Shown piece by piece: positions 5,202-26,830 of a DNA stretch of 32,000 nucleotides. A program made the translations under genes and the position numbers. Numbering within the stretch: position 1 is the stretch's first letter; every line of letters starts with the position of its first letter. Source of the DNA: Candidatus Borrarchaeum yapensis (GTDB lineage Archaea > Asgardarchaeota > Sifarchaeia > Borrarchaeales > Borrarchaeaceae); NCBI GenBank assembly GCA_016840515.1, contig JAEOSF010000036.1, positions 3,959 through 35,958 of the forward strand, given 5' to 3'. The notes under the pieces are model-generated. The model did not search any database. It saw only the letters and a list, made by a program, of their open reading frames with translations, and was not told the DNA's origin.

Positions 5202-5870
5202 TCAAGCTGGCGTTGGCACTAGAATTATTAGAAGATTTGTAACTGCTTGATATCCAAACCACAATCCAAATGCAATTAGAATTATACCACACACAAGAGA
5301 TACATATTTTAGAAATTTACCACCTAACCGTCTTCCTCCCTTTCCTAAAATAGCGGAAAGAACGAAAAACCAGAGAACGACTCCTACGACGACAAAGAAA
5401 CTGTAGAAGAGAGCACTCAATTGGGTATCTCCACCAATTACTGAGGAAAGATAGGATCCAAAAATACCAATCCAAAAAATGATAGTGATTGGATTAGCAA
5501 CGGTAATCAAGTAACCCGCTGGAAATGACCATCGTATTGACATTCTTTTGGAGTTATTTGCTTCTTTTGACTGCAGGTCAATTTCTTTAAACCGGAAAAA
5601 ATCTTTAATGGCTAAAAAACCCAAATAGATCAAAACTATACATCCGAAAATCCAGATCGCTATTTTAACCGGTGGGAATAGGAATAAAACAGAAAGACCG
5701 AAAAACACAATCAGTAGATATGTTGAATCGGCTGCGGCAGCTCCCAAACCGGTTAAAAATCCATGATAAAACCCATTTAAACCGCGTTTGAAAACTTCAG
5801 TCGTTGTTGGACCCACTGGAGCCGCTAAGGATATCCCAATAAGAATAGCGATGAGAATTTCTGTAATCAT
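5202..5870 (-). CDS. LysE/RhtB family amino-acid exporter
   Basis: 222-aa multi-pass membrane protein with a LysE-like N-terminus (ISLAAPVGPTT) and a central charged loop. Confidence 0.8.
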   Translation of the reverse strand: MITEILIAILIGISLAAPVGPTTTEVFKRGLNGFYHGFLTGLGAAAADSTYLLIVFFGLSVLFLFPPVKIAIWIFGCIVLIYLGFLAIKDFFRFKEIDLQSKEANNSKRMSIRWSFPAGYLITVANPITIIFWIGIFGSYLSSVIGGDTQLSALFYSFFVVVGVVLWFFVLSAILGKGGRRLGGKFLKYVSLVCGIILIAFGLWFGYQAVTNLLIILVPTPA

Positions 5871-5938
5871 ACCTCGCTATCTAATACGGTTTTTTAAAAA
5901 CCTTTACATTCTGACGACTATCTTCGTTTAGTTTTGTC

Positions 5939-6790
5939 CTATTTTTCGTATGCGGGTTTAATTTCGATTCTATGATCGGGATATGCGATTTTTGGGCGTT
6001 TTATTATAAAAGAATCTTCAAGATCTTCGCACATACGTCTTGCCACGCTGATTGGTATACCAAGAGCCATGTACTTGGCCGGAAACCATGCATTTCCAGT
6101 GGGATCGACAGGTCCCGTGAATACTGAGTCATAAGGCGCATTTTTTGCCATACCTGCAGGATATGTAACGAAGGTTGCGCATGATGGTCCCCATGGTGTA
6201 AGAACTGAATAAAAAGGATTTAAACTTCTGAAATGGATGAGAGTACATAAATTTCTTATCTGTTCGCCTATGCCGAAACAAACTATGGATCTAACACCGG
6301 GATCTTCTCCTGAAAGGTCTTCACAGGCTTGAAATACGATAAATTTTCCAGGAGGCGTTATTTTGCCTATTGATTTGACGCTATCTTCGACAATCTCAGG
6401 TGTAGCCTTCAAATATTCTGCAGCACCGTTTCTGAAATCTTTGGAACCTATAGATACGAAATATTTTATATAAGGAGGAAAATCCTTAAACCCGAACCAT
6501 GCTTGTCCTCCCGGACAACATCCTTCAAGCGTTTCGTGCCCCATGTAAAGCAGGGTTGCGTCTTCACGAACTGCCGTAGTCAAGATAGCCCTAGCGATAC
6601 ACCGACTGATTGAAGCTACAGGCATTGCGTTATCAGGAGACGTTTCCGAACCATACACGCATATTGGTCTCGCAACCAATTTACCCGCTTTTGTGAGTTT
6701 GATGCCGATTTCTTTAATTGATAAATCAGACAAAACCATCACCAGTGTCAGTTGTTTATAAGAATGAACATTAGAATTAAGTTTAAGCAT
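5939..6790 (-). CDS. conserved hypothetical protein (tentatively DUF169/COG2043-like)
   Basis: 283-aa ORF with good coding character and Cys-containing motifs (CCPGGQAWFGF, GPSCATFV). The family assignment is from memory only. Confidence 0.55.
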   Translation of the reverse strand: MLKLNSNVHSYKQLTLVMVLSDLSIKEIGIKLTKAGKLVARPICVYGSETSPDNAMPVASISRCIARAILTTAVREDATLLYMGHETLEGCCPGGQAWFGFKDFPPYIKYFVSIGSKDFRNGAAEYLKATPEIVEDSVKSIGKITPPGKFIVFQACEDLSGEDPGVRSIVCFGIGEQIRNLCTLIHFRSLNPFYSVLTPWGPSCATFVTYPAGMAKNAPYDSVFTGPVDPTGNAWFPAKYMALGIPISVARRMCEDLEDSFIIKRPKIAYPDHRIEIKPAYEK

Positions 6791-15013: not shown

Positions 15014-15063
15014 AGATTTCCCTCAGGTTCCCTCTACAGTTTTATAGTTACTTCGCAAGAAGA

Positions 15064-15372
15064 CCCCTCAACATGTTGGGGGGATGAATTGCGTTACTTT
15101 TTCACTGTCACCCAGGTCTCTATAACTTTTAAATAGCTGTTCGCATACCTATGACCTGTGTCTACCTGCAGGCAAGAGGTCGGCATGCGAGTACCCTTCT
15201 GAACCCTGTATGCCGTAAAGCCCAGTGGGTCTGGAAGGGGACACAGTAGGGCAGGGACTGTCCGATTTAAAGCCTGTGTTAAGCCGATACCTGGTAACGG
15301 TATGGTTGGAGACGCTGCAGGTCGTCTGTGAAGCAGGAAGCCATTCAACTTGTGGGATGGTAGTTCACGTGA
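15064..15372 (+). ncRNA. ffs: signal recognition particle RNA (7S/SRP RNA); ends approximate
   Basis: The segment CCCAGUGGGUCUGGAAGGGGACACAGUAGGGCAGGGAC (15221-15260) closely resembles the archaeal helix-8 core as I recall it from M. jannaschii (CCAGGCCCGGAAGGGAGCAACGGUAGGCAGGAC). Long-range helix-5 pairings are present (GACCUG/CAGGUC, CAUACC/GGUAUG, UGAAUUGC/GCCAUUCA). A TTTTATAG box at 15040-15047 sits about 25-30 nt upstream. Length of about 310 nt fits. The only ORF here is the antisense 15094..15375. Confidence 0.7.
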
Positions 15373-15423
15373 CAAACTAAAAAAATAATTGTTAGCCTCC
15401 CCACTAAAAAACTTGTTTCTAAT

Positions 15424-17182: not shown

Positions 17183-17305
17183 GGACCTTCAGCATTCAGT
17201 TTTCCCATCTGCTCTCGCAAGATAGTACTCACACGAACGTGTCCAGGCTTAACTTCTGAGTTCGGCTGGGATCAGGTGTGACCCTGGACCTATGACCGAA
17301 GATCC
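17183..17305 (-). rRNA. rrf: 5S ribosomal RNA
   Basis: The minus-strand RNA GGAUCUUCGGUCAUAGGUCCAGGGUCACACCUGAUCCCAGCCGAACUCAGAAGUUAAGCC.. contains the universal CCGAACUCAGAAGUUAAGC block. Helix I (GGAUCUUCGG / CUGAAGGUCC) closes the molecule. Length 123 nt. Confidence 0.95.
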
Positions 17306-17371
17306 AACTACAAGCATATAGGATCCATATAAAAACTTAACTATAGCTTATTTTGAGATGATTTTTAATAG

Positions 17372-17609
17372 TGGTGGGGACGGAGGGATTTTCAGAAAAA
17401 GAGGTTATCTCTATTTTCCTTTGAACCCCCGACATCCGCCAACCCGTGAATCCACGTTTTGTCATCGGGTTTCTCTGGTAAGCACAACTCCAGAAGATCT
17501 TCATCCTTCCGTCAGTTTTTGCTATTTACAAACCTCTGGAGCCCGACGTGCTACATTACCTCATACTAACCTACCAGAGATTAATACGAACTGGCTACAC
17601 TACGTCCCC
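17372..17609 (-). tRNA. tRNA-Trp(CCA) with four putative introns; CCA encoded
   Basis: Acceptor GGGGACG/CGUCCCC and A73. Anticodon arm UCGGG-CUCCAG[65 nt]A-CCCGA. T arm GGGGG-UUCAAA[31 nt]U-CCCUC. D arm GUGU-AGCCAG[36 nt]GUA-GCAC. Variable loop UG[29 nt]GUC. The segment lengths sum exactly to 238 nt, giving a 77-nt mature tRNA. Confidence 0.85.
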
Positions 17610-17711
17610 AATTCAATTGTAGGTACGAAATAGTGTTCTTGATTCAATTTTAAATCTTACTAAAATGATGTTTTGATTATTCCTCAATTACAAAATAACT
17701 TTGAAGAAGTG

Positions 17712-18857
17712 TTATTTCCTTAGTTCGCTTACAATTTTCTTTAAATCATCTGCTGTCGCTGATGGACCTACGAGTAATATTTTTTTACGTCCACCTGATC
17801 CCACGTGGCAATAGACTGCAAGGTTTTCAGTTCCTACAATATAAATATCACAGTCTTTCGCATCGCTTAACACTAAGGTATTTTGGGTTCGTTCTTTCTC
17901 TAACACACCACCAAGTAACAAGGTGTCCTGAAATTTGTCATCGCCAACAGCATCTAAAATGAATCCAATATCGCTCCAGAGACTCCCATCAACTGTGATG
18001 TAGTAATAGTCATTGAATCGTGAATTCAGATCATGTGAGAAATCTAAGGGTCCAAGTGGTTGAGATTTTTTATAGGAAAGCCGCACAACATCATCAGCAT
18101 CATTGCCTTCGCTAACAGCCTCTTTTATAGCCTGTGTAAGTTTATCTAAAACATCATCACCCGAGAAGGCCTTTAACCATGCAAGAATCGTGCCGCTCCA
18201 AATCATTGTGTTAATTCCAAAAACCACATCTGCACCTACTTTTTCTAATACGCTTGCATCTGGTTTCTCACGAAACTGAACGCATTTCAAAAGTGGGTAT
18301 TCGCCCTCTTCTAAGAGGACACATTCAGCAATGCCCATTTGAGTCGGATCATGATGTTCTTGAAACGAGGCTTGCAGACCTATAATTTTTTCGGGATGTT
18401 CCATCGTCTTATTTAAGAGGACAAGTTCAGCATTGATGAATTCATCAGCTTTATCATGATCACAGGGCATAAAGATTAGCAGAATTTCTTCTGCACAATC
18501 CTCGTTGATCCATCCTGTAATCTTGCATTTTTTACATTGATTCAAATGGGAGTAAATTATTCGTGCAATTGCAGCTGGAAACATATGTCCATTAGAACGG
18601 ACAAACGGAGGCTCTTTTAGGACTATATCGATTTTAGCCTCTTTAATCCACGATTGCGTTGCATCATCCTCTTTGATGGCGAGTATAACTTGTAGAGGTG
18701 TCCGTTCTCGAACACGTAGAACATCAGCCAGCAACATCCTAGTTTTATCTCGTCTTATCTTCAGTAAGTGCTTAGGAAATCCTCCAAATCGCGCTGCTCG
18801 TCCCCCAGCCGATGTTAAAAGAAATTTCTCTGTGTGATGGATTTTACTCTGTGCCAT
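17712..18857 (-). CDS. nucleotidyltransferase-fold protein (sugar-phosphate nucleotidyltransferase-like)
   Basis: The N-terminal LLTSAGGRAARFGGFPKHLL resembles the G-x-G-x-R..PK.LL motif of NTP-transferases. 381 aa. Confidence 0.6.
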   Translation of the reverse strand: MAQSKIHHTEKFLLTSAGGRAARFGGFPKHLLKIRRDKTRMLLADVLRVRERTPLQVILAIKEDDATQSWIKEAKIDIVLKEPPFVRSNGHMFPAAIARIIYSHLNQCKKCKITGWINEDCAEEILLIFMPCDHDKADEFINAELVLLNKTMEHPEKIIGLQASFQEHHDPTQMGIAECVLLEEGEYPLLKCVQFREKPDASVLEKVGADVVFGINTMIWSGTILAWLKAFSGDDVLDKLTQAIKEAVSEGNDADDVVRLSYKKSQPLGPLDFSHDLNSRFNDYYYITVDGSLWSDIGFILDAVGDDKFQDTLLLGGVLEKERTQNTLVLSDAKDCDIYIVGTENLAVYCHVGSGGRKKILLVGPSATADDLKKIVSELRK

Positions 18858-26210: not shown

Positions 26211-26435
26211 GCCGGGGTGGCTAAGAGTCGATGCATGAGGAAATTGCCCTCACTACATCGATGAGAAGCCTGGTTATAGCGCCGGACACTCTCCGAGCCG
26301 GTTTCATAGAGATTATCCCAAGAAAGCCCTTTCTTGAGACATCCGGAGAGACGTTACACGTTGAGGTAATGTTCTGAAGGTCGCGGGTTCGAATGGATGA
26401 GCGTAACGCTCTTTCCGAAAAGCCCGCCCCCGGCA
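26211..26435 (+). tRNA. tRNA-Met(CAU), elongator-like (Ile2-CAU not excluded), with five putative introns; no encoded CCA
   Basis: Acceptor GCCGGGG/CCCCGGC and A73. D arm GCUA-[53 nt = 10-nt loop + 43-nt insert]-UAGC. Anticodon arm CCGGA-C[16 nt]UCAUA[32 nt]A-UCCGG gives the loop CUCAUAA. Variable loop AG[31 nt]GUC. T arm GCGGG-UUCGAA[28 nt]G-CCCGC. 225 nt minus 150 nt gives 75 nt, with exact bookkeeping. Confidence 0.75.
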
Positions 26436-26486: not shown

Positions 26487-26657
26487 GCGGGGGTGGCCGA
26501 GCCAGGTCAATTTGCCTATAAGGGTCAGATCATAGGCGCTGGTGTGTGAGGCAACTGCTGCCTTATACTACGAGACTTAAGATCCAGTGACGTAGGTCTA
26601 CGTGGGTTCGAAAAGTTTTGGCGAAAGCCTTTTTCGGAAATCCCATCCCCCGCACCA
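26487..26657 (+). tRNA. tRNA-Leu(UAA), class II, with three putative introns; CCA encoded
   Basis: Acceptor GCGGGGG/CCCCCGC and A73. The D region GGCCGAGCCAGGUCAA[23 nt]AGGCG restores the usual archaeal Leu D arm. Anticodon arm CUGG[32 nt]A-CUUAAGA-UCCAG. Long variable arm UGACGUAGGUCUAC. T arm GUGGG-UUCGAA[28 nt]U-CCCAU. 171 nt minus 83 nt gives 88 nt. Confidence 0.8.
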
Positions 26658-26696: not shown

Positions 26697-26830
26697 GCCC
26701 CGATAGCTCAGCTGGTAGAGCGCGACCTTGGTAAGGTCGAGTTATCTTCGGAACTCCCGAAGATAAGATAAGTCGCGGGTTCGAAGGTTTTAAGAGAAAT
26801 CTCTTTCCGAAACACCCGCTCGGGGCTCCA
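26697..26830 (+). tRNA. tRNA-Thr(GGU) with two putative introns; CCA encoded
   Basis: GCCCCGA UA GCUC AGCUGGUA GAGC G CGACC UUGGUAA GGUCG AG[30 nt]GUC GCGGG UUCGAA[28 nt]A CCCGC UCGGGGC U CCA. 134 nt minus 58 nt gives 76 nt. Confidence 0.87.

Follow-up and report, generated by a model that had tools for sequence, protein, structure and literature searches.

A four-intron tRNA-Trp gene of a Borrarchaeum-like Asgard archaeon carries a conserved module antisense to its anticodon loop, a putative reduced relative of the box C/D guide

The tRNA-Trp gene is interrupted by four introns

In a 32,000-nt stretch of Candidatus Borrarchaeum yapensis DNA (contig JAEOSF010000036.1), the whole of which is referred to as the window, we analyzed a tRNA-Trp gene that is interrupted by four introns, the second of which, at the canonical position 37/38, embeds a conserved module complementary to the anticodon loop. 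The gene occupies 238 nt on the minus strand, running from 17609 to 17372. To define the introns, the bulge-helix-bulge (BHB) splice motif was required to show a cut after the second base of a 3-nt bulge on both strands and a 4-bp central helix (H) between the two bulges, with an outer helix (h) and an inner helix (h′). The gene is organized as follows:

17372..17609, minus strand: tRNA-Trp(CCA) gene with encoded CCA, five exons and four introns, called by ARAGORN on the spliced 77-mer
17609-17591, 17554-17536, 17470-17463, 17433-17420 and 17388-17372, minus strand: tRNA-Trp exons, 19+19+8+14+17 = 77 nt
17555..17590, minus strand: intron 1 (36 nt), separating G18 from G19 in the D-loop; H 3/4 and an inner helix of 12 bp in a relaxed HBh′ motif
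17471..17535, minus strand: intron 2, 65 nt, canonical position 37/38; BHB with H 3/4, an outer helix of 7 bp (the anticodon stem) and an inner helix of 3 bp
17434..17462, minus strand: intron 3, 29 nt, position 45/46; H 3/4 and an inner helix of 3+4 bp
17389..17419, minus strand: intron 4, 31 nt, position 59/60; canonical hBHBh′ with H 4/4, outer helix 5 bp and inner helix 5 bp
17473..17479, minus strand: 3′ strand of the intron 2 splice motif, in which ACC is the inner helix h′ strand pairing with GGU at intron nt 2-4 and AGAG is the central helix H strand pairing with C32-C34

In silico removal of the four inserts generated a 77-nt product that ARAGORN called as tRNA-Trp(cca) with a normal cloverleaf, and this product carries a 7-bp acceptor stem, G18 and G19, the T-loop UUCAAAU, a discriminator A and the encoded CCA. 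The unspliced gene was detected neither by ARAGORN nor by Rfam at the gathering threshold in the window scan, the 5S rRNA gene being all that the two returned for this neighbourhood. All four inserts fitted the BHB geometry with cleavage within the 3-nt bulges, and shifted registers that give the same tRNA-Trp product showed a poorer motif fit. An outer helix is present for the 37/38 and 59/60 introns and is weak or absent for the D-loop and 45/46 introns, which are of the relaxed HBh′ type. An initial annotation of the window, made from the sequence alone, had placed the four introns at exactly these positions and in this register, and had named scoring of the spliced sequence as tRNA-Trp as one of its checks; the ARAGORN call and the motif fit bear out both. 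The enzyme reported for Asgard archaea is an (alpha-beta)2 splicing endonuclease carrying an L1 loop (PMC5829648). We conclude that this is a functional tRNA-Trp(CCA) gene of a Candidatus Borrarchaeum-like Asgard archaeon, and that the observation as a whole is confirmed, well beyond chance.

Related genes with two to five introns encode the same tRNA

The flanks of the gene are 95-96% identical to those in the metagenome-assembled genome JAHQJS010000005.1 of Candidatus Borrarchaeum weybense (L002), Borrarchaeum being an Asgard genus. Scanning one genome per species with exon 2 returned this one relevant record and four chance matches in Actinomycetota, and further relatives were collected by a metagenome scan for the T-arm with the 59/60 gap and from contigs encoding two neighbouring proteins. 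Seven distinct Borrarchaeum-like tRNA-Trp genes were obtained, which carry two to five introns each at a total of seven positions (D-loop 18/19, 22/23, 32/33, 37/38, 45/46, 46/47 and 59/60):

L008/L017 and L035: tRNA-Trp with 2 introns
L029: tRNA-Trp with 3 introns
Window, L025 and L002: tRNA-Trp with 4 introns
L010/L026-28: tRNA-Trp with 5 introns

Six of the seven genes were spliced in silico and run in ARAGORN, which called tRNA-Trp for all six products; L035 was parsed by eye only, and its mature tRNA-Trp sequence is slightly different. The product of L008/L017, the other gene with two introns, is likewise near-identical to the 77-nt tRNA of the window. An identical 77-nt tRNA is encoded by five genes with three to five introns (those of the window, L002, L010, L025 and L029). 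Because different intron layouts give the identical product, the intron boundaries are proven and the gene is under selection. The D-loop intron is missing from L008, L025 and L035, and the 45/46 intron from L008, L025, L029 and L035, whereas the 37/38 intron was found in all 11 related tRNA-Trp genes examined and is the only one common to all. The splice motifs have changed with their pairing kept: the h′ pair of intron 2 at columns 16/69 of the Borrarchaeum-like alignment covaries (U-A, C-G and U-G), and the hairpin of intron 4 shows compensatory differences among relatives. Near-identical genomes with two, three, four and five introns at seven positions thus provide a natural series in which tRNA intron turnover can be followed on a very short time scale.

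Three further features of these introns were observed. Five-intron tRNA-Trp genes occur in two relatives, L010 (identical to L026-L028) and L030 (2272-2540). L002 and L010 share an extra 46/47 intron that lies one base after the 45/46 intron, and the central-helix strand of its motif (CGGA) is borrowed from the 3′ terminus of the 45/46 intron, so that the two introns are structurally interlocked. The D-loop intron (17555-17590) is identical in L002 and L029 and differs by one change in L010, whereas in the same genomes divergence is far greater in the neighbouring gene (86% identity) and in the 5′ portion of the 37/38 intron; the 12-bp helix of the D-loop intron, a recent spread or some function could be the cause of this constancy.

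The 37/38 intron embeds a K-turn-type module and an anticodon-loop antisense stretch

Inside the 37/38 intron, the parts of a putative kink-turn (K-turn) module and of an antisense stretch with its target were delineated:

17512..17515, minus strand: box D′-like CUGA, the non-bulged K-turn strand, invariant in the Borrarchaeum-like set and aligned to box D′ by a profile of known tRNA-Trp intron box C/D RNAs
17506..17511, minus strand: mini-hairpin C(GGAA)G closing the canonical stem of the K-turn; the loop varies (GGAA, GUAA, GCAA)
17498..17504, minus strand: box C′-like AUGAAGA, whose UGAAGA is matched by the profile to box C′ UGAUGA
17486..17497, minus strand: 12-nt spacer UCUUCUGGAGUU, nt 2-11 of which (17496-17487) are antisense
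17533..17542, minus strand: antisense target spanning the 5′ splice site, namely G31, C32, U33, C34, C35, A36 and G37 plus the first three intron bases AGG
17482..17485, minus strand: GUGC at the place expected for box D; no D box, its UGC pairing with G-Y-A near the intron 5′ end and extending h′

The 10-mer CUUCUGGAGU (17496-17487) pairs at all ten positions, two of them G-U, with G31-G37 and intron nt 1-3. C34 (17539) pairs with G17490, which within the 12-nt spacer is the eighth base after box C′ and the fifth when counted back from the 3′ end. The complement to the anticodon loop that had been pointed out in the initial annotation was therefore recovered at full length, and so was its CUGA and AUGAAGA arrangement, at 17515-17512 and 17504-17498, as a C′/D′-type K-turn or kink-loop (K-loop). 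The same annotation had stated that the N+5 rule does not fit; this holds in that no D box follows, which is the source of the misfit, but the geometry itself fits, with C34 at the canonical fifth base of a spacer of exactly 12 nt after AUGAAGA.

In the K-turn consensus, the non-bulged strand NNGA runs straight into a canonical stem, and the bulged strand consists of the stem, a 3-nt bulge ending in U and then GA. In the window, the G preceding AUGAAGA and the first A and U of this box form the 3-nt bulge (GAU), and the next GA would supply the tandem sheared pairs; the canonical stem amounts to only one C-G pair with a GNAA loop. At the sequence level, the consensus (NNGA, hairpin, GAU, GA, NNN) is matched in five lineages with five different hairpins, which are described below. 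We infer that the 37/38 intron may contain an L7Ae-binding K-turn or K-loop.

The alignment of Borrarchaeum-like genes indicated that conservation is confined to this module. Only 3 of 34 positions vary in the block CUGACGnAAGGAUGAAGAnCUUCUGGAGUnGUGC, versus 10 of the 17 columns before it that vary or are gapped, and on its 3′ side lies the variable h′ strand, whose changes keep pairing. The invariant 10-mer itself has variable positions on both sides and corresponds exactly to the part that pairs with G31-G37 and the three intron bases.

That the complementarity and the CUGA/GAUGA motifs arose by chance in an A+U-rich intron, or as a by-product of the needs of the splice motif, was considered as well. 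The splice motif does require a short intron stretch complementary to C32-C35, and such short motifs occur about twice per 64 kb. However, the splice-motif strand AGAG (17476-17473) is an element separate from the antisense stretch, and the antisense run of 11 nt was equalled in only 23 of 5000 dinucleotide shuffles of the intron core. CTGA-N3-9-GATGA was found three times in the window versus 2.0 expected (both strands), which corresponds to ~0.002 expected per 65 nt, and the two numbers together make chance unlikely. Since both features also recur in five lineages, the comparative data contradict this explanation, and we regard it as scarcely credible.

Other assignments of the intron elements were tried and rejected. 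Reading box C′ in the register GGAUGA would place G37 rather than C34 at the guided position, while the K-turn needs GAU as its bulge and the profile aligns UGAAGA. GUGC as a hidden D box is lost outside the Borrarchaeum-like set and pairs with G-Y-A as part of the inner helix. The hairpin CGGAAG/CUUCUG of the minimum-energy fold was discarded, as the G39 alignment column changes to U or C with no compensation. Possible C/D boxes in the adjacent exons and introns were also discounted: the CUGA with which intron 4 ends is the H strand of that intron's splice motif, and UGAGG in intron 1 is missing from the relatives that lack intron 1. A pseudouridylation (H/ACA) guide was dismissed because the anticodon CCA offers no U, and neither a pocket nor an ACA box is present. 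Nor did the strict small RNA (sRNA) pattern TGATGA-N9-14-CTGA-N3-12-TGATGA reveal a canonical sRNA in the window.

The module resembles half of the known tRNA-Trp intron guide

A box C/D guide RNA residing within the archaeal pre-tRNA-Trp intron was reportedly described by Clouet d'Orval et al. in 2001 and Singh et al. in 2004. Such RNAs have been tabulated for 26 archaea (Grosjean et al., 2008, Additional file 4, PMC2584109), in the order box C, position-39 guide, box D′, loop, box C′, 12-nt C34 guide and box D; the guide also pairs with intron bases, so that methylation must come before splicing (PMC2584109). The initial annotation had ascribed this family to Euryarchaeota; the family is indeed known there, but the same table also lists Pyrobaculum arsenaticum (PMC2584109). 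From box C′ to box D, the RNAs read UGACGA-CCCUCUGGAGUU-CCGA in H. volcanii, GGAUGA-GCCUUUGGAGCU-CUGA in T. kodakarensis and UGAAGA-UGGUCUGGAGCU-CUGA in P. arsenaticum, and UGAAGA is the C′ box of both M. burtonii and P. arsenaticum (PMC2584109). The modification itself, 2′-O-methylated C34 (Cm34), has been documented for the tRNA-Trp of H. volcanii, T. kodakarensis and S. acidocaldarius; it is said to prevent tRNA-Trp from reading UGA (PMC7668247).

The corresponding segment of the window reads (A)UGAAGA-UCUUCUGGAGUU-GUGC, with the antisense stretch in the homologous place and at the same 12-nt distance from box C′. The spacer UCUUCUGGAGUU is nearly equal to the D guide CCCUCUGGAGUU of H. volcanii, both being 12 nt directly after C′. 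Further shared features are the host gene, the 37/38 position, a D′ box CUGA followed by a loop or hairpin and then box C′, and C34 opposite the fifth base from the spacer 3′ end, which is counted here from the end of the spacer, box D being absent. As in the known family, the window guide pairs with the first intron bases, and would thus act only on the unspliced precursor. In contrast to the known guide, the window intron has neither a box C nor a box D (GUGC instead), no conserved position-39 guide precedes D′, and position 39 is a C; the terminal box C/D K-turn is replaced by an ordinary helix (h′ of the splice motif), and the host is an Asgard archaeon with three further introns in the gene.

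A profile of 24 known RNAs run with filters off aligned 17516-17487 at profile positions 24-52 of 61, with a weak score of 9.2 bits and E = 3.6e-4 for 401 nt searched. This match starts after the position-39 guide and stops before box D, and weaker matches were obtained, again with filters off, at the corresponding places in L035, L038, L031 and L030.

The window intron may also be compared, by description, with the 65-nt tRNA-Trp intron of Sulfolobus, which lacks consensus boxes and for which a guide role has been considered (Danan et al., 2012, PMC3326292); as a circle that intron is very stable, and it contains complements to positions 34 and 39 (PMC3326292). The Sulfolobus solfataricus intron and that of the window agree in the length of 65 nt, the 37/38 position, the lack of consensus C/D boxes and the complementarity to the anticodon-loop region, but the former is a demonstrated stable circle and the latter is known from sequence alone. 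If the function is shared, the distribution of this guide would be widened from Euryarchaeota and Thermoproteales to Asgard archaea, in support of an ancient link of the intron with Cm34.

The module is conserved where the surrounding intron is not

A gene for a DUF1512 protein, which adjoins the 5S rRNA gene and is widely conserved, led to more distant relatives, since contigs encoding a DUF1512 protein of 51-59% identity still have tRNA-Trp nearby. This distant set consists of L030 (five introns), L031/L033, L039 and L038, the L038 protein being labelled Njordarchaeota by one source. The distant 37/38 introns could not be aligned to that of the window apart from one module, the remainder differing in both sequence and length. 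In five lineages this module keeps the order NNGA, hairpin, GAUGA, 3 nt, 1 nt, 10-nt antisense and 1 nt, and in every one the antisense pairs at ten of ten positions with the anticodon loop plus intron nt 1-3. GAUGA is invariant, and the gap between it and the antisense is always four bases, all of which change (AGAU, AGAA, UGUA, UAUG, AUUG, CGAA). The hairpins, of 1, 2, 2, 3 or 6 bp, are C(GNAA)G, UU(UGU)AA, CCU(CAA)AGG, CCUGAA(CGC)UUCAGG and CC(GUAAA)GG. Across the alignment, pairing is kept in all 80 cells counted for the antisense helix. Of its ten pairs, seven are constant, two change U to C opposite G, and one shows a double-sided change: the pair of intron base 3 with antisense base 1 is G-C in ten sequences but A-U in L038. 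The 37/38 module is thus a real conserved element and not a product of chance.

These comparisons also bear on the possibility that the module is a decaying, functionless remnant of a full box C/D intron, retained because the intron is hard to lose. The losses of box C, box D and the position-39 guide, the low profile scores and the lack of an Rfam match would all be expected of a remnant. Yet the surrounding intron has diverged beyond recognition over five lineages, and introns have been gained and lost between near-identical genomes, while GAUGA and the GA ahead of the hairpin were kept regardless, as were the spacing and the 10-nt antisense; the substitutions that did occur preserve pairing, and 37/38 is the only intron found in every gene examined. 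We therefore consider a remnant distinctly improbable.

A different arrangement was observed in the metagenome contigs L011, L014, L015/L018/L020 and L022, where a 12-nt antisense stretch stands at the very start of the tRNA-Trp 37/38 intron. After it come a box of the D type (CUGA, UUGA or AUGA), a hairpin and GAUGA, and counting upstream from this box places C34 at the fifth base. Introns of the L011/L014/L015/L022 type are predicted from this order to be a second kind of single-K-turn guide, in effect permuted.

A guide conformer and a splicing conformer are mutually exclusive

Folding of the anticodon arm together with the intron gave the splice motif at -22.0 kcal/mol, which is also the minimum-energy fold, and the guide helix at -19.4 kcal/mol. 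Since the antisense helix and the splice motif use the same anticodon-loop bases, the two are mutually exclusive. The following order of events can be proposed. In the guide conformer, the 5′ splice site would be buried in the 10-bp helix and the K-turn would be free for L7Ae, which upon binding might recruit Nop5 and fibrillarin, and C34 would be methylated to Cm34 before splicing. The RNA would then refold to the conformer with the splice motif, which is more stable by a small margin; cleavage of the introns would presumably fall to the archaeal splicing endonuclease, the ends would be ligated, and the excised 37/38 intron would probably be circularised. On balance, we lean towards the 37/38 intron being a single-K-turn, reduced relative of the known box C/D guide that directs Cm34 formation before splicing. 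This proposal is built on the gene and its introns, their splice motifs, the conserved module with its spacing, and the two conformers, and a Cm34 guide function appears plausible.

Several results weigh against a methylation guide. In archaeal box C/D particles, methylation is normally efficient only when both K-turn motifs are present, and the fifth nucleotide is counted from box D or D′, so that with no box D the canonical methylation ruler is missing. None of the five lineages has a box C, a box D or a position-39 guide, which agrees with the remark in the initial annotation that the terminal boxes are not convincing. At the intron 5′ end, where box C (RUGAUGA) is expected, nt 2-8 of the window intron read GGUUUGU, and no UGAUGA-like box was found there in four of the five lineages; L038 has UGAUGA, only 3 nt ahead of its D′-like box. 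The place of box D is taken by GGAG, GGGG, UACG or GCCA in the other lineages, and in L030 and L031 a D box would have no room, as the spacer runs straight into the splice-motif H strand (GGAG, GGGG). As for a second guide, nearly every relative has a different sequence in the 12 nt ahead of CUGA, and these show no complementarity to A38-A43. The search for box C/D models in Rfam that had been suggested earlier was carried out and gave no family match at E <= 10 in 17300-17700, nor did any box C/D family match the window at the gathering threshold; likewise, the profile of known RNAs gave no match in 157 kb with default filters, its filter-free matches being weak. Covariation is thin, since 67 of 500 column shuffles reach the observed score, and the constancy of seven of the ten antisense pairs is in part due to their target being the tRNA anticodon loop. 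With a single double-sided event and a weak shuffle control, the case for the guide leans on conservation and spacing more than on covariation.

The same conformers could serve a structural switch without methylation, which delays 37/38 cleavage or sets its order among the introns, or which shields the anticodon loop during maturation, with or without L7Ae. Such a role is consistent with a 10-bp helix that lies across the 5′ splice site and is incompatible with the splice motif, with folds only 2.6 kcal/mol apart, with the lack of a D box to set a methylation ruler, and with the 32/33 intron of L025, which interrupts the target so that pairing is complete only once that intron has been removed. 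However, the module is unchanged in genes with two, three, four and five introns and is thus independent of intron number, and a switch needs neither an exact, length-conserved 4-nt gap to the K-turn nor the arrangement of proven methylation guides. We regard the switch as rather unlikely; both this explanation and that of a remnant are weakened because the exact spacing was kept where all else changed.

A more specific form of the guide proposal, which we put forward tentatively and with some doubt, is that several Asgard lineages use a minimal guide with only the internal C′/D′ K-turn, in which the splice-motif helix and the tRNA body stand in for the terminal motif and the target is set by the distance from box C′ rather than box D. 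If true, half the usual RNA could programme a box C/D-type particle, and these relatives of eukaryotes would share an old state in which the terminal motif has been lost. A half-guide with D′, C′, guide and exact spacing conserved in five Asgard lineages implies either a reduced mechanism or another role, and is a puzzle for current understanding.

Four introns are in line with other tRNA genes of Asgard archaea

Multi-intron tRNA genes of Thermoproteales are said to have been described by Sugahara et al. in 2008. Archaeal tRNA genes carry up to three introns according to the tRNAscan-SE 2.0 paper (PMC8450103). In Atabeyarchaeia and Freyarchaeia, 92-95% of tRNA genes bear introns and more than half have several (Valentin-Alvarado et al., 2024, PMC11291895). 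Among the entries for these groups in Supplementary Data 4 of that work (PMC11291895) are a 231-nt Atabeyarchaeia-2 tRNA-Trp with four introns and four-intron tRNA-Arg, tRNA-Ile2 and tRNA-Leu genes of Freyarchaeia. As listed there, the Atabeyarchaeia-2 tRNA-Trp resembles that of the window in having a 64-nt intron and a 31-nt intron that ends 17 nt before the gene end, and the tabulated multi-intron genes likewise hold several BHB introns at non-canonical positions. Unlike those genomes, the window belongs to another Asgard lineage (Borrarchaeia), and a guide in the tRNA-Trp intron is not discussed in that paper (PMC11291895). Four introns is the maximum in its table for Atabeyarchaeia-2 and Freyarchaeia, versus five in L010, L030 and a putative tRNA-Met gene of the window.

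This tRNA-Met(CAU)-type gene (26211-26435, plus strand) has inserts at 26226-26267, 26288-26303, 26309-26340, 26349-26378 and 26394-26421, and its 77-nt product was called tRNA-Met(cat) by ARAGORN; a canonical splice motif was found at 32/33, 37/38 and 59/60, and the D-loop and 45/46 inserts are of uncertain register. Downstream, tRNA-Leu(UAA) (26487-26657, plus strand) has three inserts, and tRNA-Thr(GGU) (26697-26829, plus strand) has inserts at 45/46 (26742-26771) and 59/60 (26786-26812); ARAGORN called both spliced products. In unspliced form, neither the tRNA-Leu nor the tRNA-Thr gene was seen by ARAGORN, and Rfam gave only a partial 30.6-bit match on the tRNA-Thr gene. Altogether, the window holds 14 introns in five tRNA genes. 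The intron-rich tRNA-Met, tRNA-Leu and tRNA-Thr genes and the published Asgard tRNA-Trp indicate that four introns are ordinary for this genome and already on record for an Asgard tRNA-Trp, and hence a described Asgard habit that is not exceptional. Of the five tRNA genes in the window, standard finders miss all but one, so the annotation of such genomes will under-count tRNAs.

The tRNA-Trp and 5S rRNA genes are loosely linked

Three elements surrounding the tRNA-Trp gene were identified:

17647..17658, minus strand: TATA-like AAGATTTAAAAT, ~43 nt upstream of the mature tRNA 5′ end and conserved in relatives
17325..17338, minus strand: TATA-like AAGTTTTTATATGG, 28 nt upstream of the 5S 5′ end, the usual archaeal TATA distance
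17184..17303, minus strand: 5S rRNA (Rfam RF00001, 85.3 bits), 68 nt downstream of tRNA-Trp

By position and conservation, AAGATTTAAAAT is likely the tRNA-Trp promoter. AAGTTTTTATATGG, which accompanies the 5S gene in relatives, the inverted 5S genes included, is likely that gene's own promoter. The 5S gene lies on the opposite strand from tRNA-Trp in L010/L026/L027, upstream of it in L030 and in divergent orientation in L031; other genes lie between the two in L002, L025 and L039, and their separation in relatives reaches about 1 kb. Co-transcription of the two genes, proposed earlier together with a gap of 66 nt (in fact 68 nt), is not upheld, given the TATA-like element of the 5S gene and the variable arrangement among relatives. 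The two genes are loosely linked, and their co-transcription is not conserved.

Neighbouring genes and a repeat element

Upstream of tRNA-Trp, the open reading frame (ORF) at 17712-18857 (minus strand) encodes 381 aa with no Pfam domain on record. Its homologues form only six clusters in a collection of 5.8 billion proteins, all at least 83% identical, and the ORF appears restricted to Borrarchaeum-like genomes.

The 3′ end of the tRNA-Trp gene differs in L002 (B. weybense), which lacks the 59/60 intron. Compared with window positions 17372-17440, the L002 region 5314-6222 (minus strand) contains ~890 nt, made up of a DUF1330 ORF and a repeat element, after tRNA-Trp, and after that insert the 3′ half of intron 4 and exon 5 are left over, so that TCCCTCCGTCCCCACCA occurs twice, as a direct repeat. 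This arrangement looks like integration or recombination at the tRNA 3′ end. In L025 and L029, the DUF1330 gene adjoins tRNA-Trp directly.

The repeat element is non-coding, G+C-rich and ~300 nt long, and was found in the window at 15045-15375 (plus strand), in L035 at 5590-5860 and in L002 at 5365-5690 (minus strand). Its conserved blocks are GATGAATTRC, TTAAGCCTGT, CAGGAAGCC and GGTAGYTCAC; the window copy (15060-15375) had no Rfam match and a fold z-score of 0.04. It occupies the same site in the window and L035 and is absent from that site in L002, where it adjoins the tRNA-Trp insert, and is possibly a small mobile element.

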